A DNA stretch of 64,000 nucleotides from Cytophagales bacterium. GTDB taxonomy: Bacteria > Bacteroidota > Bacteroidia > Cytophagales > MED-G16. Position numbers and translations under genes: made by a program. Below the pieces are notes generated by a model. That model did no database searches, was not told the DNA's origin, and saw nothing but the letters and a program-made list of their open reading frames with translations. Numbering within the stretch: the stretch's first letter is position 1; every line of letters begins with the position of its first letter. The stretch lies in the NCBI GenBank assembly GCA_045568775.1, contig JBJLAJ010000011.1, forward strand, positions 59,239-123,238, written 5' to 3'. This document shows, piece by piece, positions 447-60,962 of the stretch.

Positions 447-493
447 TTACGCAATTTGTAGGATTTATTACAAAAAGCAAAAATATAATAGAA

Positions 494-46423: not shown

Positions 46424-47141
46424 AGCATATTTTGCTGGTGACTTTCATCTAGGAAGACCTAATAAAGAATCATCATCTAATAGAGAAAAAAAAATAATTT
46501 CCTGGTTAAATAATATTAGTAAAGACGCTCAAGAAGTTTTTCTGATGGGAGATGTTTTTGATTTTTGGTTTGAATATAGAAATGTCATCCCTAAAGAGAA
46601 TTTAAGATTTCTTTCTACTATTTCTAGATTAATAGATCAAGGAGTTAATTTTCATTATTTTTTAGGTAATCGTGATATGTGGGTTCTGAACTACTTTCAA
46701 GAACTTGGAATAAAAGTGTACGATAAACCTCAAAAATTTCTTTTAAATAAAAAAAACATTCTTGTAGGCCATGGTGATGGAATAGGGAAAGGTGATTTAG
46801 GCTTTAAATTTCTAAAGTTAATTTTTAAAAATAAAATCTGTCAATTTTTATTCAGATGGATTCACCCTGACATTGGAATACCTCTCGGAAAATTTCTCTC
46901 AGGTTCAAAAAAAATGATGAATATTTCAGAAAACGCAAAACAAAATGATAAAAGAATTATAGATTATTGCATAAAATATAGAAAAGAAAATAACATTGAT
47001 GTCTTTGTTTTTGGTCATAGTCATGTCAGAACTAAGAAAAAACTATCTGAAGGTTGTTATTATTTTAATTGTGGAGAATGGATGACAGGTTCGCCTTACC
47101 TTGAATCTGATGGAAAAAATTTTGAACTGAAGTCGAGCTAA
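46386..47141 (+). CDS. lpxH: UDP-2,3-diacylglucosamine diphosphatase
   Basis: Metallophosphoesterase motifs [25 protein letters not shown] and GHSH. The track starts at TTG 46362. I prefer ATG 46386 (ATG 46371 is also possible). All candidates overlap the ftsH end, so the start is uncertain. Confidence 0.8.
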
Positions 47142-48118
47142 CCTATAGATTTTAAAAGTTCATTTCTTTGTTTCTCCCTCAATTCTATCTCAGCTAAATT
47201 ATTATTAGACATTATAAGTGATTTAAGTTCCTCATTTAGATCTTTAAAATTATTTAATTGATTAGGAGTAAATGAGATGTCTAATTTTGAAATATTATTT
47301 TCCAGATCATAACCTAGTTTAGTTAAAATATTGTTATTGATTGACTCAAAAATTAACAGTTCCTTTTCGCTCAATTCTTTTTTGAACTTTTCTTTATTAT
47401 TCCTAATTAACGGCTTTGATAAATTCTCCCATAATCCACCAGAATCTGAAGCTTTCTTAGATTCATTAGATAAATAAAAGTTTAAAAAATCTTTATTATA
47501 CTTAATATCATACTTTATACAAAGATTATTTAGAACCATAGCTGGATCTTCAAGTAAGTCCTCATACTTCACAGAAAAAAAATTTTCAATAGGTGTATTT
47601 TTTTTAATATTATCACAAATAACCTGATCAGAATACCATTTTTTTGCAAGAAAATATATGTGCTTATCACCAATTGGAGCTTTTTTAAAAGAAGAAGCAA
47701 CATCTCTCCCGTCTCTATATATATATATATAAATAGGATTCAAATTTTGAAATTCTTTGATATTATAGAACTTAAAGTTTTGGAGACTTTTACAGCACCA
47801 AAAAGTGGGATTATTATATGTATATATTGCCCTAAATATTTCAAAAAGGTTCCTGTTCTCAATAGAGCTTAAGATTCTTTCAGGAGTTGGTAAATCGCTC
47901 CATTTAATTGGATTATTTTTGATCCATATCAACATATCATCAATCAATCTTTGTGTGTTTTTCCTATTATCTAGATTATTGTATTTATCTATCAAAGGAT
48001 AAAATGTATTAAGTAAATGGGGAGGATGAGGAGCAAAAACATTTTCAAACTCATTTAGCATCAATCTAAACAAATTAGATCCAGATCTTTGAGTTCCAAT
48101 TATTTGAAAAAATTTCAT
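47138..48118 (-). CDS. sulfotransferase family protein (PAPS-type fold)
   Basis: 326 aa with no signal peptide. 5'-PSB-like loop IIGTQRSGSNL and 3'-PB-like YRDGRDVASSF. Its stop overlaps the convergent lpxH stop (CTAA). Confidence 0.8.
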   Translation of the reverse strand: MKFFQIIGTQRSGSNLFRLMLNEFENVFAPHPPHLLNTFYPLIDKYNNLDNRKNTQRLIDDMLIWIKNNPIKWSDLPTPERILSSIENRNLFEIFRAIYTYNNPTFWCCKSLQNFKFYNIKEFQNLNPIYIYIYRDGRDVASSFKKAPIGDKHIYFLAKKWYSDQVICDNIKKNTPIENFFSVKYEDLLEDPAMVLNNLCIKYDIKYNKDFLNFYLSNESKKASDSGGLWENLSKPLIRNNKEKFKKELSEKELLIFESINNNILTKLGYDLENNISKLDISFTPNQLNNFKDLNEELKSLIMSNNNLAEIELREKQRNELLKSIG

Positions 48119-48121
48119 TGA

Positions 48122-49291
48122 TTATATTTCTAAAAAGTATCCTAAGAGTCCAAAAGTTAAAATTAAAAACAATGGGTGGATTTTAGTTTTATTTAAAATA
48201 ATAAAAGAAAATATACATATAGAAATACTTAAAACATTAAAAGATTCTAATTGTTTAAACATAATTATATAACCAGAATAATATATTAATCCTATTATAC
48301 CAATTTTAAACCCTTTAATAATGAGTTTCACAGTATTATTTTTTTTCACGAAGTAATACACCCTAGAAAAAAAAATAATTACAACAGAAGAGGGCAAGAA
48401 TATAGAAAGTGTTGAAATAAAAGCTCCTGTTATTCCATTAATCTTATATCCGATAAAAGTTGCTGTTATTAAAATAGGGCCTGGAGTTATTTGACCCATA
48501 GCGATAGAGTCAATAAATTCTCTTTTTGTAAGCCATCCAATTTGTTCAACAATAATTTTATCGAGATAGGGTATAAACACATATCCTCCCCCAAATAATG
48601 TGAGAGAGATATTAGCAAAAACTTTTGAAAGATTAAAATTAAGGGAATTAATAGGTGCATTATTCAAAAAAACAAATAGTAGAATCATAATTAATGAAGC
48701 AATAACAATTCCCTTTATCCTTATAAATGCTTTCTTGGGGTTAGTAATTTTTTTTATTTTATCTCCATTATAAAGTAAGTTAAGACCACCGCATATCAGC
48801 AATGGCAAAATGATTGAAATATAGCCTTTTATTAATGAGGTCAGAGCAAAACTTAAGATTACAAGTAGAAGTGAAAATATTTTGTCTTTTGAGTCTTTAT
48901 AAAACCCAAATCCAACAGAAAAAATAACTGCTGAAACAACAGGCATTACTCCATCAAAGAATGATGAGAAACCAGGAATATTTCTAGAGTTTAGATATAG
49001 ATGTGAAAATATCACCATTATAATAAATGAAGGAAGTAAAACTCCAATAAATGATATAACAGCTCCTTTCCATCCTCTAATTAGAAACCCAATATAAGAC
49101 GCAACATTTATAGCCATTGGGCCAGGCAGAAAACTTGCCATTGTAATTGCATCTAATATTTTTTTTTTGCTTAAAATTTTTTTTCTGACAGAGAACTCAT
49201 GTTGAATCATAGCTATCAACATCATATAACCACCGAAAGATATTGTCCCTGTTTTTAAAAAAGTAAAGAATAATTTAAAATAACTCATCAA
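48122..49291 (-). CDS. chrA: CHR-family (chromate ion transporter-like) membrane protein
   Basis: 389 aa, duplicated-domain polytopic protein. Contains FLKTGTISFGGYMMLIAMIQHE and, in the second half, SLTLFGGGYVFIPYLDKIIVEQ...GQITPGPI. Confidence 0.8.
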   Translation of the reverse strand: MMSYFKLFFTFLKTGTISFGGYMMLIAMIQHEFSVRKKILSKKKILDAITMASFLPGPMAINVASYIGFLIRGWKGAVISFIGVLLPSFIIMVIFSHLYLNSRNIPGFSSFFDGVMPVVSAVIFSVGFGFYKDSKDKIFSLLLVILSFALTSLIKGYISIILPLLICGGLNLLYNGDKIKKITNPKKAFIRIKGIVIASLIMILLFVFLNNAPINSLNFNLSKVFANISLTLFGGGYVFIPYLDKIIVEQIGWLTKREFIDSIAMGQITPGPILITATFIGYKINGITGAFISTLSIFLPSSVVIIFFSRVYYFVKKNNTVKLIIKGFKIGIIGLIYYSGYIIMFKQLESFNVLSISICIFSFIILNKTKIHPLFLILTFGLLGYFLEI

Positions 49292-49329
49292 AATCTTTTT
49301 GAAGCTCTAAACAATACCTAGAATTAAAT

Positions 49330-50643
49330 TTACAATAACTTTTTATTGTCAATATAATATACTCTATAAAATGAATGATCACTTGATAAATTCCATAAAA
49401 TTTTTCCTGAAATATCAGATATTATTGTTTTATTATTTACTGAACTTGAAAAAAGATAATTTTCATCATCAATTAAGTAAACACTACCCTGCTTGAAAGT
49501 AAATAAGTTATCTGGAAGGAACACACTCTTTTCATGATTAAATTTTTTATTTATCTCATCTAAAGAGAAAACAAGAGCTCGTGATGACTTCCTATATTCT
49601 GACGACCCATTATCAAAGAGCATATATTGACTTTTGTTAACCTTATGTATTGCATGTTGTTGATAGAAAACATCTTTATTATCTAAATTAAAATCACCTC
49701 CTTTTCCTAGTCTCCACATTACATCTCCACTAATAGAATTAATTTTCCAAATTTGATCAAAATTTCTAAATGAAATAAGATAATTCCCATCAGAATCTAT
49801 ATCAATTCCATTTCCATGACTCCAATCATCACGGATTAAATATTGTTCTCTATCCGGTTCTATATGATCAAAAATATTCCATCTCCATATTTTCTCGCCA
49901 TTTTCATCATATACAACAATCCCATCACCCATTAAGGAATCAATTCCATTTTTATAATAATTATAGTATTCATATGTAAGGCCAACAAAATATGATTTTT
50001 TGTTTTCACTAAATTTTAAAATATCATGGTGAAAACTATGTGAGTTAGAAATTTTTGAAAATAATGTGTCACCTTCAAAGCTTACTTCATTAATAATATT
50101 TCTCTTTGATAAGGAAATATAAGTGTTTTTTAATCCTATATTAAATGGTCTAGATAAGACTGAATCACTAATACTATACCATACAATTTCGCCATCATCA
50201 TCCATCATAAACTGAATACCAGGATCTTCTTGAGTTCTAAACAAAAGAAAACCATCAAAAGAAAATGAAGAGTCTTTTACTAAATCAAAAGAAGGAAAAA
50301 CATTTGGTAGACTTCTTGTCTTAAATGAATATAAAATAGAAGAATTAATATTTTCTGATTTTGAAAATTCATTTATTTTAAACAAATAATTGGATGATGG
50401 TTTTAGATAAGGTAATACTATATCAAAAGAATCTCCCTGATAAGTCAAAGAGGAAATAACCTCATTTTGATCTAACCAATATGAGATGTTTGTTGATGTA
50501 TTAAAATCTGTTTTAAAGTTCACATGATATTTTGAATGATTGTAACCTGGTAAATCAACTGAGACCTGACTGAAATTATTTTTTTTAGAGCAAGATATTA
50601 CTAGAAATAAAATAAGAAATGAATAGTTTTTAGAAATCATCAT
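49330..50643 (-). CDS. arylsulfotransferase (ASST) family lipoprotein
   Basis: 437 aa. Lipobox LFLVISC-SKKNN. N-terminal beta-sandwich followed by propeller-type repeats. Contains the ASST-like stretch DWSHGNGIDIDSDGNYLISFRNFDQIWKINSISGDVMWRLG...QQHAIHKV...MLFDNGS. Confidence 0.7.
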   Translation of the reverse strand: MMISKNYSFLILFLVISCSKKNNFSQVSVDLPGYNHSKYHVNFKTDFNTSTNISYWLDQNEVISSLTYQGDSFDIVLPYLKPSSNYLFKINEFSKSENINSSILYSFKTRSLPNVFPSFDLVKDSSFSFDGFLLFRTQEDPGIQFMMDDDGEIVWYSISDSVLSRPFNIGLKNTYISLSKRNIINEVSFEGDTLFSKISNSHSFHHDILKFSENKKSYFVGLTYEYYNYYKNGIDSLMGDGIVVYDENGEKIWRWNIFDHIEPDREQYLIRDDWSHGNGIDIDSDGNYLISFRNFDQIWKINSISGDVMWRLGKGGDFNLDNKDVFYQQHAIHKVNKSQYMLFDNGSSEYRKSSRALVFSLDEINKKFNHEKSVFLPDNLFTFKQGSVYLIDDENYLFSSSVNNKTIISDISGKILWNLSSDHSFYRVYYIDNKKLL

Positions 50644-51910
50644 TTAAAATAATTTTAGTAGATCTTGCTGAGCCATCTTCAAAATGGATCAAAAGTAAAT
50701 GAATACCAACAGCTAAATTATTAAGTTTTAATATAATTTTTTTATGGTTATCATTAATATTCTTAGAAAAAATAATTTCACCTGATAAATTAAAGAATTC
50801 TATTCTATCAATATTTTTAGAAGTTTCGTTTAGTACAATTAAATTTCTATTTGGAGGTAAGGGATTAGGGTACACAGATACTATATTATCTATAAATTCA
50901 TTTCCTGCTACAATACTTTTCTCTTCAAATAAAAGTTGCCCCTTTGCAAAAGCGTCTTCACCTATATTCTTACCCATTATTCTGCCAGGGATATCATCGA
51001 TATAAGGATGAATTCCTCCCCAAATACGAGAAAGAGAACATTGATCAGCAGCATCTCTGTATGTTGCCCACTGTAATTTCATATCAACAGAGGGTCCTTT
51101 TTCAAAGACAAGAAAATTATTTTTAGGGATGATAAATTCTCCAATTCCACCTGGAAAGAATTCATTTCCAGTTAATTTTTCTAATATTATTGCAGCTGCA
51201 CTAGAGTATGTTGAATGCCCTGAAATATATCCTGCAAATGGAGGAGTAACAAAACTTGGTCTTTGATATGGCCACCAATTTTCTGCAAGTATCCACCCAA
51301 CTCCTTTCTCGACATCAGTAGAATCAGCTTCATTAAATCCTTTCCAAGTGAATAATTTAACTTTTCCTAAATTCTTATTATTATCTCCAACTAGAGGGTC
51401 ATTGATTGAAACCATTTCTATATATCCATCAATTAAAGGGAACCCATTTGGGCTGTAATTTGTTGAATCTTTATAAGTAGACTGCCCATTTTCAGATAAA
51501 TATCTGATAACAGAAATTGGCCTAGCATAATCATAATATCCTTTTGATCCCCACGCAGAAATTGCAGCATCATGCATAGCTCCACCCATTAAAAAATAAG
51601 ATTTTATATCCCAATCAAGTCTATCTAACTCTTGTCCTGTTCCCTTAAATTTTCTTATTAGATCATCATCATCATTTACTTCATTTAATATTACAAACCA
51701 ATGTCCAGGAGGTGTCTCGGAATCAGGTCCATCAGCCCAGAATTCAGCAAGAACTCTTGTGTAATCACCCCTTGGCACAATTTGTTCTGTGTATTTCTGG
51801 TTATTAAAGGGATTTATCTCATGTCCAAGACCTATATCTCCACCATCAAAATAATTATATAGATTATGATAGTCTAAAAAATCATTAGGGTAAGAAGTTA
51901 GAGTTTCCAA
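50630..51910 (-). CDS. vanadium-haloperoxidase-like PAP2 domain with T9SS C-terminal sorting domain (3' portion of a split gene)
   Basis: 426 aa, opening at a TTG with no signal peptide. Contains AEFWADGPDSETPPGHW and a complete PAP2 triad: K-x6-RP (KGYYDYARP), SGH (YISGHSTYS) and SR-x5-H-x3-D (SRIWGGIHPYIDD). Tail VSVYPNPLPPNRNL...LLLIHFEDG. Its N-terminal domain half lies in the upstream ORF. Confidence 0.8.
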   Translation of the reverse strand: METLTSYPNDFLDYHNLYNYFDGGDIGLGHEINPFNNQKYTEQIVPRGDYTRVLAEFWADGPDSETPPGHWFVILNEVNDDDDLIRKFKGTGQELDRLDWDIKSYFLMGGAMHDAAISAWGSKGYYDYARPISVIRYLSENGQSTYKDSTNYSPNGFPLIDGYIEMVSINDPLVGDNNKNLGKVKLFTWKGFNEADSTDVEKGVGWILAENWWPYQRPSFVTPPFAGYISGHSTYSSAAAIILEKLTGNEFFPGGIGEFIIPKNNFLVFEKGPSVDMKLQWATYRDAADQCSLSRIWGGIHPYIDDIPGRIMGKNIGEDAFAKGQLLFEEKSIVAGNEFIDNIVSVYPNPLPPNRNLIVLNETSKNIDRIEFFNLSGEIIFSKNINDNHKKIILKLNNLAVGIHLLLIHFEDGSARSTKIILNDDF

Positions 51911-54701
51911 TCGAATTAGGAGATATATCTAGAAGAACCCCGTCAGACCTATCAAGATGAGCCCCCCAAACTGACACCATAGAAAATGAATTTTTAAATA
52001 AGGAATCTAATTTACCTTGATTTAAGGTGTCAAGAAGAGGCGGTGGCCCAGGATCATGATAAATTTTATAGATATTATCATCTCTCAACTTAATAACTAA
52101 GTCTTCTTCTTTGAGAGCAAAAGGGGTCACGTTTCCCCATTCTGGGGAAATAAATTCAGGAATCCCCTCAATTAAGTTTCCTGACTGATCAATAAAATTT
52201 GAAATCTTTAGTGGTTGCCATCTATTAGGATCTATAATGTCAGGGTTACCATAAGTATCTAAATCAAGTGGCGGATTAAGCGGTGAATAATAGTTACTCG
52301 AGTAATCATTTACCTCATTTGAATTATCAAGAAATCCATAATCTGAATATATTTTATTTAAATAATTCCCTATAGATCTTGGGTCACCTGACAAATAATC
52401 TAACTTATCATAATTGATATCATAATCTAATGTTATCATGAGTGAGTCTACTCTTTTATAAGTATCAATTATACCAACTGATTTTTTAAATCTGTGTCTT
52501 ATGAAATTATATGAAGCATAAGAAATGATTTTTTCTATATATTCATCATCATGAACATATGTAGGGTATTCGAAAGGATAGTTAGTTTCATTAATAGTTT
52601 TATCGAGTAAAAAAGGAGTTATATTTTTATTATTAATTAATTTTTCCTTGATAACAAATGCATCATACATTACTGAAGAAAGGTGAAACAAGTTTCTAGC
52701 ATGAATAGGTGGTCTTGCTAAATCATCCCTAATTGCTTGTAATAACACTTCCATCCATTTTCTCGCAATAGACTGACTAGTAAAGTCACTGTTTCCTGAA
52801 TTTTTAAGTAGATTTTTAATCTCAAATGTTTTAGTTAAGTGACATCCTTTTTCATCTCTTACAGTGATTGAGTGTGTACCTGAACTTATATTAGAAAATA
52901 TAAATTTATTTTTAAAGTATGTTCCTCCGTCTAATGATAAATAATAATCATTATCTAAGTTGATGTTATTTATCTGAATTGAGCTAGTGTGCTGGTTCGT
53001 AATATCTTTGACAATAACATCAAAATCTGGGGGAGATGTTTTTTCAATTATTATAGTATCAGAAGAGAACATAGCACCGTATTCATCATAAACATTAACA
53101 AAATAATTTCCACCTTGACTAATACTTATATTTTGAGTTGTATCTCCTGTAGACCATTGGTATCTATGATAGTAACCAGTCTCTAAGGATAACAGACTTC
53201 CATCACAAAAAGAATCACTAACTGAATATATCTTTGGAATTAAAGAAGTAGAGCCCTCGTTTATAGTGATCAATCTATTTCCTTCTATTTGATAAAAAGC
53301 ATCAATCTCTCCAGATGGCCAATACACTTTTAAACTATCAACTGTTTGGCTGTTGCCAAGACCAATAAATAAAGTATTAGAGTTCTGTGAAAGGTAACCC
53401 TCTGTAGAAAATTTACCGCGTGTTATAGTTTTATCTTCAACATAAATAACTACCCTTGATCCATACGCATCACTATTTGAGTTGAAACCAACTAAATTAA
53501 CTTTTAGCCAGTTATTAGTTCCAGAGTAAATATTTTTAAAAAGGAAGGAATTAAAAGGCTCCATGTTTAATACTACAATATCAGGATAACCATCATTATT
53601 TATGTCTCCTACTGCATTCCCATAACTAGATACAGTATCAGAATCTAAGCCTACTGAAATATTTTGCTCAAAATATTTTCCAAAAATATTTGAATAATAC
53701 GCACTAGAATTCACATTAGACCCAACAAGAGACCCACTTACATAAAGGTCCTCATACCCATCTAAATCAAAATCTTCAAACTGAGCTCCCCATCCCTCAG
53801 CATTAAAAGGGACTCCTTTTTCATCAGCACGTTCTGTAAAAGTAAGATCTTGATTATTTACAAATAACTTATTTCCTTCTTCTAAATTTGTAGAATAGAT
53901 ATCAAAAAAAGAATCATTATTAAAGTCTCCTACCGTCACTGACATAGCATCCATCTTAACACCAGTATTAGACTGAGTACTTATATTTGAAAAAGTAGAA
54001 TCTAAATTATTGTAGTAAAGGGAGTTCCCAGAAGACTTATCATTAGCAATGTAAAGATCTTGGACATTATTATTATCTATATCTATAAAAGTAGCACAGA
54101 AAGGTAACTTGTTAATCTCTGAAATAGATGAAATGTTAGTTATATCAATAAAAGATTTTCCTTCATGGTTTAAGTATAAACTTACAGTATTATTTATACT
54201 ATCTCCTGACCTGTATGTCTGCAATAAATCTAGGTATCCATCATTATTAATATCAGACCATGAGGAACCAAAAGAGTTTGAAACAGAATCTGGTAAATTA
54301 ACAGAAGACGTTATATCAATAAAATTAAGAAATCCATTGTTCTCATAAAGTTTATTTTTACCACTAAATGAAGAAACATACAAGTCTTTATCAAAATCAT
54401 TATCAAAATCAATCCAAAGTACTTGCTTTATTTGATAAGGAAAGTCAATGCCAAAAGACAAAGGATATAATTTGTCTCCATTATTTTTTAAAAAAAGTAT
54501 GGAAGTATTTCCATTCGTCGGTATTGTTATATCATCTAACCCGTCTAGATCAAAGTCAACAAAACTTACACCAGCACCTGAAACTCCTTGAAGATATGAA
54601 TGATTGAAATCAAGAGATGAAGATATCTCATTGAAATATAGTTGTGAGAATAATGGGTATTTAGTAGCGAGTAAAATAAAAAAAATAAGATATTTTTTCA
54701 T
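51885..54701 (-). CDS. FG-GAP/VCBS repeat + ASPIC/UnbV (CRTAC1-like) protein carrying the N-terminal half of the haloperoxidase-like domain (5' portion of a split gene)
   Basis: The track starts at TTG 54719, but ATG 54701 gives the signal peptide MKKYLIFFILLATKYPLFSQ. Repeated FDLDGLDD / INNDGYLD / FNNDSFFD / INNDGYPD FG-GAP calcium loops. UnbV motif GSRVVIYVED...GYLSQNSNTLFIGLG...VYWPSG. Ig-like modules. Then ARKWMEVLLQAIRDDLARPPIHARNLFH...NRWQPL...ISPEWGNVTPF. Confidence 0.8.
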   Translation of the reverse strand: MKKYLIFFILLATKYPLFSQLYFNEISSSLDFNHSYLQGVSGAGVSFVDFDLDGLDDITIPTNGNTSILFLKNNGDKLYPLSFGIDFPYQIKQVLWIDFDNDFDKDLYVSSFSGKNKLYENNGFLNFIDITSSVNLPDSVSNSFGSSWSDINNDGYLDLLQTYRSGDSINNTVSLYLNHEGKSFIDITNISSISEINKLPFCATFIDIDNNNVQDLYIANDKSSGNSLYYNNLDSTFSNISTQSNTGVKMDAMSVTVGDFNNDSFFDIYSTNLEEGNKLFVNNQDLTFTERADEKGVPFNAEGWGAQFEDFDLDGYEDLYVSGSLVGSNVNSSAYYSNIFGKYFEQNISVGLDSDTVSSYGNAVGDINNDGYPDIVVLNMEPFNSFLFKNIYSGTNNWLKVNLVGFNSNSDAYGSRVVIYVEDKTITRGKFSTEGYLSQNSNTLFIGLGNSQTVDSLKVYWPSGEIDAFYQIEGNRLITINEGSTSLIPKIYSVSDSFCDGSLLSLETGYYHRYQWSTGDTTQNISISQGGNYFVNVYDEYGAMFSSDTIIIEKTSPPDFDVIVKDITNQHTSSIQINNINLDNDYYLSLDGGTYFKNKFIFSNISSGTHSITVRDEKGCHLTKTFEIKNLLKNSGNSDFTSQSIARKWMEVLLQAIRDDLARPPIHARNLFHLSSVMYDAFVIKEKLINNKNITPFLLDKTINETNYPFEYPTYVHDDEYIEKIISYASYNFIRHRFKKSVGIIDTYKRVDSLMITLDYDINYDKLDYLSGDPRSIGNYLNKIYSDYGFLDNSNEVNDYSSNYYSPLNPPLDLDTYGNPDIIDPNRWQPLKISNFIDQSGNLIEGIPEFISPEWGNVTPFALKEEDLVIKLRDDNIYKIYHDPGPPPLLDTLNQGKLDSLFKNSFSMVSVWGAHLDRSDGVLLDISPNSIGNSNFLP

Positions 54702-54710
54702 CACTCTAAA

Positions 54711-54748
54711 AATAAACAAAAAAAAAGGTAACGACTTACGCCGTTACC
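54711..54748 (-). terminator. rho-independent terminator after the SusCD-lipoprotein operon
   Basis: Minus strand reads GGTAACG-gcgtaagt-CGTTACC followed by TTTTTTTTGTTTATTTTT. It lies 38 nt after the lipoprotein stop, and the T-tract ends about 10 nt before the next ATG (54701). Confidence 0.65.
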
Positions 54749-54785
54749 CTTTTAAATCATATATGTAAATATATGTAGTACCTAG

Positions 54786-55718
54786 TTAGTTCAAGTCAGG
54801 CCAATTCTGTCCATCATTTCTGGTAAGTACAGAAACGGCACCTTCACCATAGTCATTAGTCCAATCAATAGTTAGCGCATTACCTGTTGAGCTAACATCA
54901 TGAAATGTATAAACTTCTGACCATCTAGAAGCACCTACTGGTGATAAAATACCACAAGCATCTTGTACTTTAAGTGTTCCACCTGGATTAGTTGAACCGG
55001 CTCCGTAACAAGCTAAATAGATTCCCCAGTCAAACTGACCAGCAGGCTCTATATATAAGTTGTCACCACCAGATTTAACCCAAGAACCAGAGTAGTTTGA
55101 AGTTGCAGTACAACCCCATCCACCTTGGCCAACACTTACTGCGTCCCAACTTGACTCAAGGTCAGAAGGACACACGACAGAAACGTTAAGTCTATATAAT
55201 GCACCAAATGCATTAGAAGACTGTAAGTTTGGTCCTGTATTGTTATAATCGTAAGTAGTACCATCAGACTTAGTTATAGTAAACCAAAATCTGAAGTAGT
55301 TACCGCCATCAATACCAGTAATATCTTTCCCTACTGCTGCCATAGTAGCAGAAAAAGTTAAACTGATGTCATTACTAAGGTATCCATCAGCATTCTTTAC
55401 GAATTCTGACGAAGATATAGTTCTGAATTGAGTTCTGGCAACACTATTAGCGCCACCACCGATAACGTCCACATATTCTACATCAATATCAAACTCAGTG
55501 ATATTTCCACCCTGAGCTTCATCATAATATTCTACATGCATGTCAATTGAAGAACCAGCTACATCGAAGTAATTGAATTTACCAGTCTGTGACATCTTTC
55601 TAGCGTATGCACCATATTGCATTTCTGGAAAAAGTTCAACCGGTAAAACAGGATCACCACATGATATAGCAGTTGTCATTGCTATGAATGCTACGAATAA
55701 CTTTTTTAAATTTTTCAT
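54786..55718 (-). CDS. hypothetical surface lipoprotein in the SusE/F position of the locus
   Basis: 310 aa. Lipobox MTTAISC-GDPV. The C-terminal half carries 5 further Cys (CPSD, WGCTA, LACYGAG, DACG). I recognise no family. Lies 18 nt downstream of susD. Confidence 0.6.
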   Translation of the reverse strand: MKNLKKLFVAFIAMTTAISCGDPVLPVELFPEMQYGAYARKMSQTGKFNYFDVAGSSIDMHVEYYDEAQGGNITEFDIDVEYVDVIGGGANSVARTQFRTISSSEFVKNADGYLSNDISLTFSATMAAVGKDITGIDGGNYFRFWFTITKSDGTTYDYNNTGPNLQSSNAFGALYRLNVSVVCPSDLESSWDAVSVGQGGWGCTATSNYSGSWVKSGGDNLYIEPAGQFDWGIYLACYGAGSTNPGGTLKVQDACGILSPVGASRWSEVYTFHDVSSTGNALTIDWTNDYGEGAVSVLTRNDGQNWPDLN

Positions 55719-55736
55719 AATTGTTTTAATTTAAAA

Positions 55737-57464
55737 TTAGTTTAATGCACCAGCTCTATCCCAGAAAACTTTCTCACCAAGATCTGTTCTAACAGGAGCG
55801 TTTTTGTTCAAGTTAGAGAAATCTGATGGATACGGGAACAACCTTGGAAAAGTACCAGCGTCAGGAGTCTTCATAGGACCCTGCATCTCAGTTGGATGAC
55901 CAGTTCTTCTCATAGCATTGTACAATTCGACACCGTTAGAGAATGAAGCGAGCCTATGCTCTTTAACAATGATATTCATCTTTGCTTCATTATCAGATGC
56001 GGCATCATACGCACTCAATACATAATTGACATAAGCGTCAATACTTCTTTGTTCAGGAATTGCACCAATTCCGTCACCATTGAAGTCACCAACTTCACCC
56101 CATCCTGCAGAGTAACTCATTACAGAACCAATAGAAGTTGTTAACGCTGTTTCTAACATATCTCTAGCATTTTCACCAGATAAACCATCAAGAGCAGCTT
56201 CAGCTCTCATGAAGTATACGTTAGCAGACATAAGGATCGGAGCGTGTCCGTCTCCTCCGCCTCCATCAACACCACCATGTTGAGTATGAGAAATCCCACT
56301 ACCAAATGTATTAGTTGCAGCATCACCGTCATCATAAGCACCAGCAGCTGGATAAATCCCTCTGTGTGTTCTTTTCTGACCATCTGGAGGAGTACCATCG
56401 TTATTACCGTGGTCTCTTCCCCAGTAACCTTTCGCATTAGCAGCATCAATAGTTGTTGTACTACTTCCTGCACAGAAAGGCCATGTTACTGTAACACCAT
56501 ATGCATTTGTGTAAGGATTGTCATACCATACTGGTCTAGTATCAGGTATCACACAATCAATTGTAAATAAATCTTCACCTACAATATTCAAATCTTGTCT
56601 TTTGTAATAGTATCTAAGTCTTGGATCAGGAATACCCTTTTCTTCCATTAACTCCCACATGTAGTAGTTAGATTGATATGGACCAGAATATGATTCATAC
56701 GATCCACCATACCATGGGTGTCTAGAGTCTGGGTTTTGTCTATTACTTCCGTATTTAAACACCCAATCTTCAGATTTATCGTCTATTACACCAGCAGCTA
56801 AAGCAGCAGCAATTTTACCAGCATCACCTCTGTTTAGAGCAGCTCTAAACTTAAGAGTATTTGCTAAAGTTATCCACTTTGCTTTATCACTACCATAGTA
56901 GATGTCCACAGTTGGAGCACCAATGGCAGTTTTGTTAAGATCTGCAATTGCTTCGTCATATAATCCCTCAACAGCTGTGTATACAGATTCTGCATCATCA
57001 ACTACAGGACTAAGATTAGCAGTTCCTTGCCATGCTTCACTATAAGGAATAGCACCGTGCTTGTCAACAAGCATTTGAAGAGCATATCCTTTTAAGATTT
57101 TACCAGCACCTACGTGAATCCAAGATTCAGCAGCAGTACCAGATTCAATCATCGCGTCGATGTCAGGAACAAGTCCAGAATAAACAGTATTCCAAGATCC
57201 ATTAAAACTTGAAGATAGATAAGCGTTGTCATAGGTTTCACCCCACGTCATACACGCAACTCTAGCTACTTGGAGCATTGGAGTTTGATTTCCGTACCAC
57301 CATCCAGCAAAACTTGTCTGAACAGCATTCCAGTATAAATCAAGACCTGCATTCTCAACAGTCACAGCATTCGGGTTATTTAACTGATCTAATTCAGTTA
57401 TTTCACACGAGTAGCCAACAAACATGAAGGCAACAATCAAGTATAATTTGTTTAATTTTTTCAT
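55737..57464 (-). CDS. susD: SusD/RagB family nutrient-binding outer-membrane lipoprotein
   Basis: 575 aa. Lipobox FVGYSC-EITELD with an acidic post-Cys segment. Helical SusD-like N-terminal region (WNAVQTSFAGWW...). Lies 19 nt downstream of susC. Confidence 0.85.
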   Translation of the reverse strand: MKKLNKLYLIVAFMFVGYSCEITELDQLNNPNAVTVENAGLDLYWNAVQTSFAGWWYGNQTPMLQVARVACMTWGETYDNAYLSSSFNGSWNTVYSGLVPDIDAMIESGTAAESWIHVGAGKILKGYALQMLVDKHGAIPYSEAWQGTANLSPVVDDAESVYTAVEGLYDEAIADLNKTAIGAPTVDIYYGSDKAKWITLANTLKFRAALNRGDAGKIAAALAAGVIDDKSEDWVFKYGSNRQNPDSRHPWYGGSYESYSGPYQSNYYMWELMEEKGIPDPRLRYYYKRQDLNIVGEDLFTIDCVIPDTRPVWYDNPYTNAYGVTVTWPFCAGSSTTTIDAANAKGYWGRDHGNNDGTPPDGQKRTHRGIYPAAGAYDDGDAATNTFGSGISHTQHGGVDGGGGDGHAPILMSANVYFMRAEAALDGLSGENARDMLETALTTSIGSVMSYSAGWGEVGDFNGDGIGAIPEQRSIDAYVNYVLSAYDAASDNEAKMNIIVKEHRLASFSNGVELYNAMRRTGHPTEMQGPMKTPDAGTFPRLFPYPSDFSNLNKNAPVRTDLGEKVFWDRAGALN

Positions 57465-57483
57465 TATATATAAAATTTAAAAA

Positions 57484-60400
57484 TTAGAAAGTTAAACTTA
57501 AAGTAGCTCCCCACTTCTTAGCAGTAGGACCAGTCATCTCATCCCATCCTCTAGCATTAGAACCAGCACCGTAACTTATAACCTCAGGGTCAAAATTTGA
57601 TCCTGCAGGGAAGTTCCATGCATAATGCCAGATGTTCTGAGCAGACATAGTTAAACTAGCACTTCCAAAAGGAGTTCCACTAAGGAACGACTTAGGCGCA
57701 ACTAAAGAAAGAGAAACCTCTCTTATTCTCATTACAGAAGCATCATACATTGAGTTTTCATCATAGAATACACCAGTATTTGGCCAGTAGTGAGCGTTTG
57801 CAGTAGTTTGCTTAACGTTAGGAGATCCGTCATTTGTCAGACCTTTTGTAACGATTGGAACAAACCTATCAAAACCTGTTTCCTCAAGGATACCTCTACC
57901 AAGTAGAGTAGAACTAGTAGTAGAGAATACATCTCCACCTACAGAAGAATCGAACTGAACTCTTGCTGTTACCCACTTATATGTTAACGTATTAGTAACA
58001 CCATAAACATAGTCAGGGTTTGGATCACCAATTACACCATAACCAAGTTGCTGATATCCACCATTTGAGTTAACAATAGGAGTATAGTTTAATCTATCAT
58101 CCCAGTTAACCTGTAAATGATCAGTTCCGTCAAGGCTACCATAGTCTCTCTTGATTACATCACCTTCCATTATACCATAAGGTAGTCCTGGGATAGCGAT
58201 ATTACCTCTACCAGTATATCCACCAACATAAATTTTATCAACTCCATCAGCAATAGATAGTACCTCACTTCTCAATATTGAGAACTGTCCAGCTATTTCC
58301 CAAGTAAAGTCTCTCGACTGAACAGGAATTACTGAAACGATAGCTTCTATCCCTTTGTTATTGATAGATGCTGAGTTAACAGTTGATGATGTATAACCAG
58401 TAGATGCATCAAGATCTAAGTCTATAATAAGATCTTCTGAATCTTTAGTAAATAACGACAAGTCTAAACCAACTTTATTTTGAAAGAATTTACCTTCAAT
58501 ACCGAACTCAAGCTCCTTATGAATCTCAGGAGTTAAATCAGGGTTAGCAAAGAAATTACTTACAGCATTTGAATTTAACAACGCACCACCTGAAGTTTGG
58601 AAAATCTTAGTATATGTATTAAGTGATCCTCTCGTAGAATATGGAGGAGGATAACCTGCAGACGTTCCGAAACCAAATCTAACTTTCAAGAAGTTAAGGT
58701 TTTGATTGCTAATAGACAATGCTTCTAAAGGTAAAATAGATACTGATACAGATGGGTATAGGAATGATCTGTTTGCTTCTTCTAAAGTAGAAGTCCAGTC
58801 ATTTCTAGCAGATGCTGATAAGAATCCCCAGTCTCTATAACCAAGAGTAAGGTTAGCATATGCACCATAAGTATTTTCTCTTAATACGTAAGTATTTGCA
58901 TTAGTCACTGTAAAGTTTTGATGATCGAAGAAGTTATATATAAACATATCAGAACTAGTTATCTGAGATAATTCATAATTTCTAGACTGTAAGTTTCCAC
59001 CTACTAAGAAATCAAAATCAAGATCTTCAGATAATTCTACTGATCCGTTTAAGTTTACAACTTGATCATAATTTATATTATTTCTATTGGACGTAGCATA
59101 ATGGCCAAGAACAGCATAGCCTTGAACTCCATTCTTATTAATCATGTAGTTGTTTAGCATATTAGTTCTATCAAGACCTAGTCTATACGTCAGATTTAAA
59201 AAGTCAGCTATCTCATAACTTAAAGTAATGTTACCGATAAATCTGTTAACATCATCTCTATCCTTAGTGTTATGTAGAGTCCATAAAGGATGTTGCATCC
59301 CGTTATTACCTCTATAATAAACACTACCATGAGTATCTGGTCTTTCGTATTCCATTCCAAATAAGTTCCAACTTCTAGGAGTATACATAACATTACCAAA
59401 TAATGATACATTGGTAGCGTTTGAGTTTCTACTCGGGTTTACAGGTGGCTTATTACTTTGTGATTCAATATAATTGAATGAAGCATTAATTTTTAAACCG
59501 TTTGCAAGCTGAGTATTAGCCCCTAACGAGAAATTATGTTTTCTATAATCGTTGAATGGAACATATCCGTTGTCTTTAGTCCAACCATAATTAGCTTTTA
59601 TTGATGATGAACCAACTTGAGCGTTGACACCAATAGAAGTATTTTGTTGAGAACCGTCGACAAAGAAATTCTGTAAATTGTCATATGCCTGGTATTTCCA
59701 TCTAGCACCTACGTACTGAGGGAATACACCATTCCATATGGCTCTGTCATAAGGGTGCTTAATAGTACCATCAGTCAAACCGTTTCTGTTAGGTTGGTCA
59801 AATGGAGCTCCCCAGTTACTAAATGCAGCTGCGGCTCTATTTTGCCATCCGTTACCATACTGATCTTGATCATCTGGTACACTAGCTACCTGATTCACAA
59901 AATATGATTGACTAAATGTTACTTCTAATCCTTTATTAGCATTAGACCCACCAATTTGGCCAGTCTTTGTTGTAATAAGGATCACACCATTTCTACCAGC
60001 TTCACCGTAAAGTACGGTTGCAGCAAGTCCCTTAAGCACACTAATTTCCGCTACGTTGTTTGGATCAAGATCTAAGAATCTACTAGAAGCAGTAGCACCA
60101 CCACCAGTAAAACCTCTATCCCTATAAGTTGATGCATCAATTGGCACACCATCTAAAACGAATAAAGGCTGATTAGAACCTGAAATTGAGGTATATCCCC
60201 TAATAATAATATTAGTTCCAGTTCCAGTGACACCACTTTGCGATGTGATATCAACACCAGGAACTTTACCTCTCAACAACCTAGCTATGTCTGCTTCGGG
60301 TCTAGCTTCAAGCTGTTCACCACCAACAGAAGTCACCGCATATCCTAATGCAGCTTTTTCTTTGGTGATACCCAATGCAGTTACAACAACCTCTTGAAGT

Positions 60401-60696
60401 TCTTCAACATCAGAGCTCATAACTACATCCACCACTGATCTAGAGCCAATTGCAATTTCTTGCGACGCTAAACCAATAAATGAAAATACTAAGGTACTTC
60501 CGTCACTAGGAACATCTAGTGAATAGGAACCGTTGACATCTGTAGTAGTACCAACAGTTGTACCTTGAAGGATAACGTTAACACCAGGAAGACCACTTCC
60601 GTCTTCATCAGATGATACCGTACCCGAGATAGTTCTGTCTTGAGCCCAAACATTTGAAGCCAAAAACAAGAAACTAACTAGTATAAATCTAAACAT
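57484..60696 (-). CDS. susC: SusC/RagA family TonB-linked outer-membrane transporter
   Basis: 1070 aa. Signal peptide. Carboxypeptidase-regulatory-like domain (ISGTVSSDEDGSGLPGVNVILQGTTVGTTTDVNGSYSL). Plug region (VVVTALGITKEKAALGYAV, NIIIRGYTSISGSNQPLFVLDGVPI). Ends in aromatic LSLTF. No N-terminal STN signalling domain. Confidence 0.93.
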   Translation of the reverse strand: MFRFILVSFLFLASNVWAQDRTISGTVSSDEDGSGLPGVNVILQGTTVGTTTDVNGSYSLDVPSDGSTLVFSFIGLASQEIAIGSRSVVDVVMSSDVEELQEVVVTALGITKEKAALGYAVTSVGGEQLEARPEADIARLLRGKVPGVDITSQSGVTGTGTNIIIRGYTSISGSNQPLFVLDGVPIDASTYRDRGFTGGGATASSRFLDLDPNNVAEISVLKGLAATVLYGEAGRNGVILITTKTGQIGGSNANKGLEVTFSQSYFVNQVASVPDDQDQYGNGWQNRAAAAFSNWGAPFDQPNRNGLTDGTIKHPYDRAIWNGVFPQYVGARWKYQAYDNLQNFFVDGSQQNTSIGVNAQVGSSSIKANYGWTKDNGYVPFNDYRKHNFSLGANTQLANGLKINASFNYIESQSNKPPVNPSRNSNATNVSLFGNVMYTPRSWNLFGMEYERPDTHGSVYYRGNNGMQHPLWTLHNTKDRDDVNRFIGNITLSYEIADFLNLTYRLGLDRTNMLNNYMINKNGVQGYAVLGHYATSNRNNINYDQVVNLNGSVELSEDLDFDFLVGGNLQSRNYELSQITSSDMFIYNFFDHQNFTVTNANTYVLRENTYGAYANLTLGYRDWGFLSASARNDWTSTLEEANRSFLYPSVSVSILPLEALSISNQNLNFLKVRFGFGTSAGYPPPYSTRGSLNTYTKIFQTSGGALLNSNAVSNFFANPDLTPEIHKELEFGIEGKFFQNKVGLDLSLFTKDSEDLIIDLDLDASTGYTSSTVNSASINNKGIEAIVSVIPVQSRDFTWEIAGQFSILRSEVLSIADGVDKIYVGGYTGRGNIAIPGLPYGIMEGDVIKRDYGSLDGTDHLQVNWDDRLNYTPIVNSNGGYQQLGYGVIGDPNPDYVYGVTNTLTYKWVTARVQFDSSVGGDVFSTTSSTLLGRGILEETGFDRFVPIVTKGLTNDGSPNVKQTTANAHYWPNTGVFYDENSMYDASVMRIREVSLSLVAPKSFLSGTPFGSASLTMSAQNIWHYAWNFPAGSNFDPEVISYGAGSNARGWDEMTGPTAKKWGATLSLTF

Positions 60697-60890
60697 AGTT
60701 TAATTTTAATTTAATTAATAATTGTTTAACAATAATATCCCGCGATTTTGAACATTTTTCACCAAAAAAGGAGAAAAAAGCCTAAAACACAGTCACGCCT
60801 CCCTACCCAAAATCTTCATTTAGAGCAAGGAAACTAATATTTTAAGGTTTTTTAACAAAAAACCCGATAGCTATTTTAACAATTATTAGA

Positions 60891-60920
60891 GAGAAATCAA
60901 TGACATTTCTCGTTTTTTTT
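60891..60920. terminator. hairpin flanked by A8/T8 tracts downstream of the OmpA-family gene (possible bidirectional terminator)
   Basis: Plus strand reads GAGAAAT-caatgac-ATTTCTC followed by gTTTTTTTT. On the minus (gene) strand the same stem is preceded by A8 and followed by only a weakly T-rich tail, so function for the minus-strand gene is uncertain. Confidence 0.35.
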
Positions 60921-60962
60921 ATGAATTATTTAACTGTCAATTAACATAGATTTAGCCTGAAA

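Follow-up and report, generated by a model that had tools for sequence, protein, structure and literature searches.

Which activity is exported by a gene that joins a CRTAC1-like FG-GAP propeller to a helical domain with the catalytic motifs of both vanadium haloperoxidases and PAP2 phosphatases is the question raised by this locus. The window analysed, by which we mean the whole stretch of 64,000 nucleotides, comes from the metagenome-assembled genome (MAG) of an uncultured marine Bacteroidota, labelled Cytophagales at NCBI and not a flavobacterium. The fusion gene occupies positions 50630-54701 of the minus strand, on which all features given here with coordinates lie. Our best reading, held at roughly even confidence, is that its product would be a surface-exposed vanadium haloperoxidase (VHPO), which releases hypohalous acid and is targeted by a binding propeller.

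The gene comprises 1356 codons and a stop codon plus one extra base, which results in two overlapping open reading frames (ORFs) at 51885-54719 (944 aa) and 50630-51910 (426 aa), both of them with domains reported below. Joined from the ATG at 54701, the two frames give 1356 aa, the same length as intact relatives such as P0001 (98 % identical), in agreement with the single gene of about 1355 aa that a sequence-only reading had proposed across the frame break. Alignment to a metagenome contig with the gene intact (L001, 98.8 % identical) places the break at a single-base insertion, a T on the coding strand at window position ~51902, where the minus strand reads GGAAAC[T]CTAAC against GGAAAC-CTAAC in the contig; this falls within the catalytic module, past codon ~933. 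Since the insertion interrupts the gene, the window copy is either mis-assembled or inactive. Occasional indel errors do occur in MAG consensus sequences and offer an alternative to a real insertion, which would leave the strain without functional enzyme and with only a truncated propeller protein, devoid of catalytic residues and of the T9SS tail. Such a dead gene, to which we give somewhat less than an even chance, also has against it that at least ten further proteins of its 90 % cluster are intact at 1356 aa, and that the two halves are otherwise undamaged, being free of further stops and 98-99 % identical to the intact version. In its favour, the extra base lies outside any homopolymer, the downstream half has a public protein record of its own (MFL3002006.1, 100 % identical to the ORF at 50630-51910), and rpoB, rpoC, fusA and SusC, the other long genes of the window, are all intact, indicating that indels do not abound in the assembly.

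The joined protein consists of a signal peptide, an FG-GAP propeller with a UnbV/ASPIC domain, two beta-sandwich modules, a 629-aa two-bundle domain and a type A T9SS tail, and profiles together with AF2 models thus bear out the order first proposed (signal peptide, FG-GAP, UnbV, two Ig-like modules, V-HPO-like domain and Por tail). A probable Sec signal peptide, MKKYLIFFILLATKYPLFSQ (54642-54701), was read from the sequence, and the model has an N-terminal helix at aa 2-12. The seven-bladed beta-propeller that follows (aa ~21-395; 53517-54641) is matched by Pfam FG-GAP_3 in five stretches (E 9e-28) and modelled with a pLDDT of 89.3. Its calcium loops, of the form Dx[DN]x[DN]xxx[DE], occur at aa 49, 98, 150, 207, 259, 310 and 366, so that the FG-GAP calcium-loop repeats noticed earlier stand, while their count rises from about six to seven. 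Next comes the UnbV/ASPIC domain (aa ~412-478; 53268-53468; Pfam PF07593, UnbV_ASPIC, E 1.1e-15). The CRTAC1 likeness of the N-terminal half is supported both by sequence, with a profile match to 9etn (E 1.2e-29), and by fold, since the best match of the propeller model is this same crystal structure of murine CRTAC1 (E 4e-27; rmsd 3.4 Å, 522 alignment columns). All fold matches of the propeller are binding proteins, namely CRTAC1, integrin alpha, a Psathyrella lectin and Vibrio Bap1. We know of no ligand for any CRTAC1-family propeller, a point against the reading preferred below.

Two small beta-sandwich (Ig-like) modules (aa ~490-630; 52812-53234) were delimited from the strand pattern of the model (pLDDT ~90); no Pfam family matched them, and PKD_6 (Pfam) matches distant homologs at the same position. 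At the C-terminus, the T9SS type A sorting domain (aa ~1275-1356; 50633-50878) scores above the cutoffs of both PF18962 (Por_Secre_tail, 28.6 bits, cutoff 27) and TIGR04183 (32.9 bits, cutoff 23). Homologs also bear this tail, those of Gammaproteobacteria being tail-less.

Between the Ig-like modules and the tail lies the catalytic module (aa 634-1262; 50915-52802), modelled as two helical bundles with beta-rich insertions (AF2 pLDDT 88.7, pTM 0.92). Foldseek matched this model to NapH1 (3w36), NapH3 (8cxl), XhnO11 (9l8x), ZgVIPO (4usz/4cit) and CiVCPO (1vnc), with E from 2e-17 to 4e-10, over the whole length of the VHPO chains (target TM-score 0.71-0.75 with bacterial targets, 0.52-0.56 with CiVCPO). 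VHPOs were likewise the sole matches of the module in a PDB sequence search, and Pfam VCPO_2nd scored 31 bits (cutoff 27). The motifs quoted in the sequence-only reading, ARKWMEVLLQAIRDDLARPPIHARNLFH, AEFWADGPDSETPPGHW and the KX6RP / SGH / SRX5HX3D triad, are all found, and the whole two-bundle fold in the model agrees with the V-HPO-like domain then suggested. Motif 1, W1050-x2-K1053-x6-R1060-P (WGSKGYYDYARP; 51521-51553), was aligned with HMMER to ZgVIPO, XhnO11 and esVHPO and is invariant in 40 homologs; motif 2, F1155-x4-S1160-G1161-H1162 (FAGYISGH; 51215-51238), and motif 3, R1225-x5-H1231-x3-D1235 (RIWGGIHPYID; 50996-51028), come from alignment to VHPOs and the same 40 homologs. Conservation of the vanadate ligands, proposed as the check on a plain PAP2 phosphatase, is complete: K1053, R1060, S1160-G1161-H1162, R1225 and H1231, with the adjoining Trp/Phe pair, are unchanged in 40/40 homologs. 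In module numbering, the residues invariant down to ~50 % identity are W417, K420, R427, P428, F522, S527, G528, H529, R592 and H598, and in the alignment they coincide with the three ZgVIPO motifs. The invariant Trp and Phe are, in ZgVIPO and CiVCPO, the residues that we take to line the halide pocket. H1231 corresponds to the histidine that binds vanadate, the motif-3 residue known as covalent vanadate ligand (PMC13198595; H496 of esVHPO in 10.1101/2025.10.24.684477). Motif 2 retains a His, like CiVCPO and ZgVIPO, at a position that is Ser in the selective NapH1/esVHPO type (PMC13198595; 10.1101/2025.10.24.684477).

Upstream of the fusion lie SusC (57484-60696), SusD (55737-57464) and a 310-aa lipoprotein without family (54786-55718), a block (54786-60696) that is arranged likewise in the relatives L002, L003 and L084. 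Downstream, an arylsulfotransferase (ASST; 49330-50643), overlapping the fusion's stop by 14 nt, is followed by a ChrA-family transporter (48122-49291) and a Sulfotransfer_3 gene (47138-48118), a block (47138-50643) repeated in L084 and L085. The whole order, from SusC to the sulfotransferase, is kept in loci of relatives at 61-69 % identity. The neighbours of a 44 % homolog are a SusCD pair and another ASST, which has a T9SS tail, and in Winogradskyella-type genomes the fusion gene sits among housekeeping genes. The SusCD link is not general to the fusion but holds in the window's lineage and a few other loci. The fusion is therefore of little help for understanding the CRTAC1-like proteins associated with SusCD at large.

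The architecture itself, first thought unusual, turned out to recur in dozens of Bacteroidota genera and in Gammaproteobacteria. The module was found in at least 591 species genomes. Among the best 80 species loci, about 35 hold the same fusion as a single ORF, contrary to the possibility that orthologs are always separate genes, and in 8 further loci the immediate neighbour, encoded on the same strand, is an unfused CRTAC1-like gene, located either before or after the module gene. Of 10 large representatives with multiple domains, 7 have FG-GAP repeats ahead of the module; such proteins additionally bear CBM_4_9, NPCBM, F5/8-type-C and PKD domains. On the basis of the shared ORF, the co-occurrence with FG-GAP and the adjacency, propeller and VHPO-fold module are functionally coupled. 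The fusion is common among marine bacteria. We found no paper on these proteins, which are apparently unstudied, and no source that names them as haloperoxidases.

In the reading that we prefer, a product of ~150 kDa would be exported by Sec and then T9SS, probably to end up at the cell surface or close to it. The 629-aa module would most likely be a vanadate-dependent haloperoxidase, and one of the 'non-selective' kind, in which H1231 binds vanadate, K1053, R1060, S1160, G1161 and R1225 keep it in place, and H1162 aids the uptake of H2O2; iodide, bromide or chloride would be converted to hypohalous acid, which is then released. The calcium-binding propeller and UnbV would form a non-catalytic binding module, separated by the Ig-like spacers, that would keep the enzyme in contact with a polymer, a particle or the surface of a cell, so that the short-lived oxidant acts locally. 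In the window's lineage, the SusC/SusD locus with its arylsulfotransferase and sulfotransferase fits both modification and uptake of organic matter that is phenolic or sulfated.

Marine Bacteroidota commonly have phosphatases at their surface, and the main rival is a secreted phosphoesterase with PAP2-type chemistry, in which H1231 would form a phospho-histidine with H1162 as the acid and organic phosphorus would yield its phosphate at the cell surface, while the propeller binds the polymer and SusCD takes up the products. The conserved residues serve both halide oxidation and phosphate ester hydrolysis, and sequence and fold cannot prove the former; this identity with the PAP2 residues counts against a haloperoxidase. 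The full signature is invariant, including the Asp at +4 (D1235), homolog P0038 has a weak sub-threshold PAP2 match, and an apo-chloroperoxidase dephosphorylation reaction has been deposited (entry title of PDB 3bb0). We nevertheless consider a phosphoesterase unlikely, given that the two-bundle VHPO fold spans the whole module whereas acid phosphatases fit one bundle (~108 residues aligned, E ~1), that Pfam PAP2 is absent or below threshold, that the presumed halide-pocket Trp and Phe are invariant, and that no phosphate-regulon gene was found near the fusion in the window.

Other observations also count against a haloperoxidase: the module is only 13-17 % identical to any characterised VHPO and longer by roughly 150-200 residues, some carriers, judged by their record titles, are apparently non-marine, the window copy is frame-shifted, and the loci examined showed neither a family-wide conserved neighbour, SusCD and ASST links being lineage-specific, nor an H2O2-generating partner, whether as fused domain or conserved neighbour. 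So does NapH3, a VHPO fold with non-halogenating chemistry (title of PDB 8cxl). As it is among the best structural matches, the module might instead catalyse a halide-independent, vanadate-dependent peroxidation or a NapH3-like non-redox rearrangement, acting on one particular substrate bound to the propeller. Members from different phyla remain at least 50 % identical along 620 aa, a degree of conservation that is uncommon among VHPOs, which otherwise diverge strongly. It points to a defined substrate or partner, and the large beta-rich insertions of the AF2 model could form a substrate pocket. This we regard as quite improbable, as the motif-2 His and the Trp/Phe pair are kept as in enzymes releasing hypohalous acid (HOX), no biosynthetic gene cluster was found around the module loci, and the protein is exported, in contrast to the characterised selective enzymes of natural-product pathways (10.1101/2025.10.24.684477).

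Among known systems, Zobellia galactanivorans VIPO1 (4CIT / 4USZ) shares with the module a marine Bacteroidota origin, the two-bundle fold (target TM-score 0.73-0.74) and all three motifs, including W-x2-K-x6-RP, PPF-x-x-Y-x-SGH with its His, and SR-x-x-GGIH, with identity limited to 16 %. At ~450 aa, VIPO1 stands alone, without propeller or T9SS tail; the window module exceeds it by ~200 residues and has beta-rich insertions as well as an extra invariant AEFWADGPDSETPPGHW block. The best matches, both in fold (E 2e-17 to 6e-15) and in PDB sequence, belong to a group made up of the selective bacterial VHPOs NapH1 (3W36), esVHPO (9PTR) and XhnO11 (9L8X) and the non-halogenating NapH3 (8CXL). 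Its members hold vanadate with the same K, R, S, R and H as the window protein but differ in the motif-2 Ser (alignment; 10.1101/2025.10.24.684477; PMC13198595), in a Lys-Ser dyad with HOX kept inside for natural-product or quinolone modification, and in lacking a propeller fusion. Curvularia inaequalis VCPO (1VNC; fold match E 2e-11), a fungal, stand-alone enzyme with 13-14 % identity, has the same residue set probed by mutagenesis, at R360, H404 and H496 (PDB mutant entries) and at K353 and R490 (Hemrika 1999, quoted by PMC10427571). The PAP2 acid phosphatases of Escherichia blattae (1EOI) and Shigella (PhoN, 8YC1) present the same three catalytic motifs in the active-site bundle, although they are single-bundle proteins of ~220 aa. 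Finally, CRTAC1 / ASPIC (9ETN) resembles the N-terminal half in its FG-GAP calcium loops and UnbV_ASPIC domain, while the window protein has no EGF-like domain; numerous bacterial 'CRTAC1 family' paralogs (~800-1100 aa) have the same propeller, UnbV and T9SS tail, and what sets the window protein apart from all of them is the 629-aa enzyme module placed between spacers and tail.

The fusion gene lies on the minus strand at 50630..54701, and this span, already proposed in the sequence-only reading, is confirmed by its start codon (ATG at 54701, opening 1356 codons) and by the joined frames. In the window the gene is split into two minus-strand ORFs, which overlap in different frames: an upstream one of 944 aa (51885..54719), with FG-GAP_3 and UnbV_ASPIC, and a downstream one of 426 aa (50630..51910), with VCPO_2nd and a T9SS type A sorting domain, which is 100 % identical to the NCBI entry MFL3002006.1 ([quoted passage not shown]). 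Once joined, they match single-ORF proteins of 1353-1357 aa from end to end with 56-98 % identity, in agreement with the earlier proposal of one gene and not two. That the halves are separate genes is ruled out, as the downstream ORF begins at a TTG within the catalytic module, with neither a signal peptide nor the first helical bundle.

DNA alignment with the metagenome contig L001, which is 98.8 % identical to the window, reveals a sole difference in length, one extra coding-strand T (GGAAAC[T]CTAAC, window ~51902) that lies outside any homopolymer. At least 10 other proteins of the same 90 % cluster have the full, unbroken 1356 aa, and the other long genes of the window (rpoB, rpoC, fusA and SusC) are unbroken, so the frame break comes either from a rare error in the consensus or from inactivation in this strain. 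A programmed frameshift is ruled out, since L001 and all orthologs lack the extra base and keep a continuous frame. Within 51880..51910, the upstream zero frame ends in CCC_TAA, where a +1 slip of tRNA-Pro would restore the downstream frame and give a product of normal length with four residues changed (SNFL instead of LTSY). Given that near-identical relatives do without the extra base, this slip site is probably coincidental.

The encoded protein keeps the parts and the order that had been read from the sequence, as both Pfam and the structural models now corroborate. Its upstream ORF matches FG-GAP_3 (E 9e-28) and shows seven Dx[DN]x[DN]xxx[DE] calcium loops across aa ~21-395, spaced by roughly 50 residues, followed by UnbV_ASPIC (PF07593; 57.7 bits against a cutoff of 23.4, E 1e-15). 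The AF2 model of the first 640 aa (pLDDT 89.3, pTM 0.87) finds its closest fold in murine CRTAC1 (9etn_A, E 4e-27, target TM-score 0.73, rmsd 3.4 A), which is also matched by sequence with a profile of 40 homologs (E 1.2e-29). The proposed CRTAC1-like nature of the N-terminal half is thus upheld by Pfam, profile and fold. The next fold matches are integrin alpha subunits, the Psathyrella velutina lectin and Vibrio cholerae Bap1; every match named for this half is a propeller that serves in binding or adhesion, not in catalysis. As modelled, this calcium propeller resembles binding proteins only, and we know of no CRTAC1-family propeller with a known ligand. Animal CRTAC1 has a C-terminal EGF-like domain, whereas the window protein matches no EGF family in Pfam and carries instead two small beta-sandwich (Ig-like) modules and the enzyme module. 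The Ig-like modules (aa ~490-630, minus strand) are seen in the model; no Pfam family matches that region in the window protein, and distant homologs have PKD_6 matches there.

The catalytic module (aa 634-1262, minus strand) is recognised from its AF2 model, its Foldseek matches and the Pfam family VCPO_2nd. The model (pLDDT 88.7, pTM 0.92) retrieves 29 top matches in the PDB, down to E 1.3e-2, and every one of them is a chain of the vanadium-dependent haloperoxidase (VHPO) family, with E 2e-17 to 4e-10 for NapH1, NapH3, XhnO11, the Zobellia iodoperoxidase (ZgVIPO) and the Curvularia chloroperoxidase (CiVCPO). Target TM-scores of 0.71-0.75 for the bacterial chains NapH1, NapH3, XhnO11 and ZgVIPO indicate that the entire two-bundle enzyme is covered. 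PDB matches by sequence, using HMMER and a profile, are likewise VHPOs only, and Pfam assigns VCPO_2nd to the window protein with 31 bits (cutoff 27). DUF6851, which corresponds to the first bundle, is absent from the Pfam matches of the window protein but present in its homologs P0038 (Polaribacter) and P0047. Identity to characterised VHPO enzymes is only 13-17 %.

Three motifs fall in register with ZgVIPO in the HMMER alignment: W1050-x2-K1053-x6-R1060-P, P-P-F1155-x4-S1160-G1161-H1162 and S-R1225-x5-H1231. None of these residues varies among 40 homologs, which extend to ~50 % identity, and the block AEFWADGPDSETPPGHW is equally constant. W1050 and F1155 align with ZgVIPO counterparts, and presumably line the halide pocket as do W350/F397 in CiVCPO and W321/F353 in ZgVIPO, the latter pair being placed with the help of the alignment. 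In motif 3, H1231 (RIWGGIH) aligns with the GGIH/GGVH of ZgVIPO, XhnO11 and esVHPO. This histidine is the covalent vanadate ligand (CiVCPO H496) and the other residues form the oxyanion cage (PMC13198595; 10.1101/2025.10.24.684477), whose positions correspond here to K1053, R1060, S1160, G1161 and R1225. The sequence-only reading had named loss of the vanadate ligands as the sign of a plain phosphatase; the ligands are all retained. Models and alignments together show a complete predicted VHPO-fold domain with an intact and strongly conserved active site.

Motif 2 also bears on the type of haloperoxidase. H1162 is the counterpart of the acid-base H404 of CiVCPO, a position occupied by Ser in XhnO11 and esVHPO, and the selective NapH1/esVHPO class, with this Ser, depends on a Lys-Ser dyad (PMC13198595; 10.1101/2025.10.24.684477). 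The module thus has the motif 2 His of CiVCPO and ZgVIPO, whereas the NapH1/esVHPO class has Ser, and with its His retained it would group with the type that releases hypohalous acid.

Whether such a fold implies halide oxidation is a different matter, for which we consider the chances to be about even. The same residues also define PAP2 phosphatases: the motifs KX6RP, (P)SGH and SRX5HX3D are all present (KGYYDYARP, ISGH and SRIWGGIHPYID), including the Asp at +4 from the histidine (D1235), so that sequence alone does not separate the two chemistries. However, an enzyme with PAP2 phosphatase chemistry seems rather unlikely, because the VHPO fold extends over the entire domain and the Trp/Phe pair is invariant, which shifts the balance towards a VHPO. 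Moreover, the module has no match to Pfam PAP2 (PF01569) at E <= 1, the homolog P0038 reaches 11.7 bits against a cutoff of 27.2, and PAP2 acid phosphatases, which are single bundles of about 200-250 aa, align in Foldseek (E about 1) over just ~108 residues out of 629. Some other activity on the VHPO fold appears less probable still. No H2O2-generating oxidase was found fused or adjacent to the module, among either the neighbouring ORFs of the loci or the multi-domain representatives.

The architecture had been described as unusual, which proves to be mistaken, since it is widespread and visible in databases. A pattern scan over one genome per species found the catalytic module encoded in at least 591 species genomes, among them Flavobacteriaceae, Saprospiraceae, Cyclobacteriaceae, Rhodothermales, Balneolaceae, Verrucomicrobia and several gammaproteobacterial groups; the 80 best loci were kept, and their modules share 51-56 % identity with the query module. 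When 1.84 billion representatives were searched exhaustively with HMMER, 670 clusters (50 % identity) passed E <= 1e-30 and 1937 passed E <= 1e-10. About 35 of the 80 best loci carry propeller and module in one ORF, either of ~1340 aa with a T9SS tail (Bacteroidota) or of ~1240 aa without it (Gammaproteobacteria), and ~35 more carry stand-alone modules of ~730 aa. In 8 of the best 80, a CRTAC1-like gene of 540-820 aa directly adjoins an unfused module on the same strand, up- or downstream, at a distance of -3 to 518 nt. Among large multi-domain representatives, 7 of 10 have FG-GAP repeats N-terminal to the module, and their companions are CBM_4_9, NPCBM, F5/8-type-C, PKD, dockerin or Fib_succ_major; the carbohydrate-binding ones point to polymer surfaces as the site of action. 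Propeller and module are therefore recurrently coupled, physically or genomically, and their fusion in many lineages, together with adjacency in either order elsewhere, is a classic sign of joint function. The names that NCBI gives to these proteins go no further than “FG-GAP-like repeat-containing”, “T9SS type A sorting domain-containing” or “DUF6851 domain-containing”. A literature search found no publications on the fusion architecture or on the DUF6851/PF21167/PF22778 families; the architecture appears functionally unstudied.

In a rough NJ tree, the Bacteroidota fusions cluster at the base, separate from the stand-alone forms, and the gammaproteobacterial fusions make up a second clade amid the latter. 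The position of this second clade suggests either horizontal transfer or a second fusion event, and the star-like shape of the tree does not separate one origin from two. Eight gammaproteobacterial MAG loci (L013, L018, L020, L023, L029, L032, L050 and L063) hold the propeller-module fusion without a T9SS tail, and several of these MAGs are seemingly sponge-associated, judging from isolate names. Another common architecture, found in the homologs P0249, P0260 and ~20 more of ~1300 aa, consists of an N-terminal VHPO-like module, a partner domain of ~600 residues with no Pfam match and a T9SS tail. The homologs P0121-P0126 (853 aa) and P0025-P0027 (977 aa) have modules 76-77 % identical to that of the window and miss most or all of the propeller; P0126 carries the NCBI label of a Cytophagales MAG protein. 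All these homologs may result from truncated gene calls or be natural variants, devoid of the propeller, in a closely related lineage.

The fusion is a multi-domain protein and probably exported. Its C-terminus (aa ~1275-1356) is a T9SS type A sorting domain (PF18962, 28.6 against 27; TIGR04183, 32.9 against 23), and its first 20 aa, MKKYLIFFILLATKYPLFSQ, look like a Sec signal peptide. Within the 64-kb window, an OmpA/TPR protein (60963..62768) scores 153 bits with the PorE model, whose cutoff is 600. This protein of 601 aa, upstream of SusC, is similar to outer-membrane proteins of the CHU_0125/PorE type, although well under the NCBIfam cutoffs, and it occupies the same position in the relatives L002 and L084.

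Around the fusion, the minus-strand order is SusC (57484..60696; TIGR04056, 518 bits), SusD (55737..57464; family match), a lipoprotein of 310 aa (54786..55718; signal ...AISCGD), the fusion itself and, 3′ of it, a block (47138..50643) of an arylsulfotransferase (ASST), a ChrA-family transporter and Sulfotransfer_3. The lipoprotein has no Pfam or NCBIfam family above threshold, with a sub-threshold match to DUF4903 only, and, judging by its place between SusD and the fusion, it could be a surface binding protein similar to SusE/F; it is conserved in relatives with 60-86 % identity. The ASST has a lipoprotein-type signal and overlaps the fusion stop by 14 nt. Gene order is identical in relatives whose fusion proteins are 61 % and 69 % identical, a 65 % relative misses both ASST and sulfotransferase, and a 44 % homolog adjoins a non-orthologous T9SS-tailed ASST and another SusCD pair. 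The ORFs scanned from 46362 to 62768 contain no match to a glycoside hydrolase or lyase family. SusC and SusD have a clearly higher G+C content than the fusion, the ASST and the downstream genes (0.37-0.44 against 0.24-0.35; 54750..57000 against 50250..54500), which may be due to strong expression, through codon usage, or to a different history.

How far this neighbourhood informs on function depends on its recurrence. ORF clustering over 84 loci found no universally conserved neighbour; the top clusters reach 13 loci at most, and the ones sampled consist of housekeeping genes from syntenic Winogradskyella-type genomes, where the module is flanked by such genes. Of the 80 best distant loci, only 6 have SusC at a distance of up to 10 kb (L033, L054, L064, L065, L067 and L078), and none of these is fused. 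The association with SusCD is thus real in the window's lineage, where the pair adjoins on the strand of the fusion, but not general, and the fusion does not serve, as had been hoped, as a clue to SusCD-associated CRTAC1-like proteins at large. The ASST is similarly rejected as a general partner, being found in the window's lineage only, plus the non-orthologous case. For that lineage, the SusCD and ASST neighbours suggest that the enzyme acts on organic matter of phenolic or sulfated nature, and the ASST-ChrA-Sulfotransfer_3 set may be a cluster for handling sulfated or halogenated phenolics. The ChrA-family gene (48122..49291; TIGR00937, 222 bits) is directly 3′ of the fusion in L002 and L003 too. 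By analogy, since vanadate is a tetrahedral oxyanion like chromate, it is conceivable that its product supplies the cofactor; a dedicated vanadate transporter is, however, unsupported, given that the adjacency is confined to the window's lineage.

In the mechanism that we propose, vanadate would be bound at H1231, and H2O2 and halide would yield hypohalous acid, released close to the target held by the propeller; SusCD may import the resulting products or fragments in the window's lineage. A bolder, and quite doubtful, extension is that propeller and DUF6851/VCPO_2nd module constitute an obligate two-part extracellular oxidative system, widespread among marine Bacteroidota and sponge- or particle-associated Gammaproteobacteria, in which the propeller would dock on a polymer or cell surface and the vanadium enzyme would make hypohalous acid there, to halogenate or degrade refractory phenolic or sulfated organic matter for SusCD uptake, or else as a contact weapon. 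If true, this would provide the first clue to function for the CRTAC1/ASPIC family and reveal a large overlooked bacterial source of marine reactive halogens and organohalogens. Halide oxidation by itself, if true, would mean a common surface machinery for HOBr/HOI in heterotrophic marine bacteria, with a bearing on marine iodine and bromine cycling, the bromination of dissolved organic matter and algal-bacterial warfare, and for the enigmatic CRTAC1 family the fusion would imply a role that can be tested, that of a targeting module. To our knowledge, characterised bacterial VHPOs are few, small and stand-alone; in contrast, the module described here defines a distinct, highly conserved and probably exported clade inside the VHPO superfamily, habitually tied, and repeatedly fused, to a CRTAC1-like propeller.
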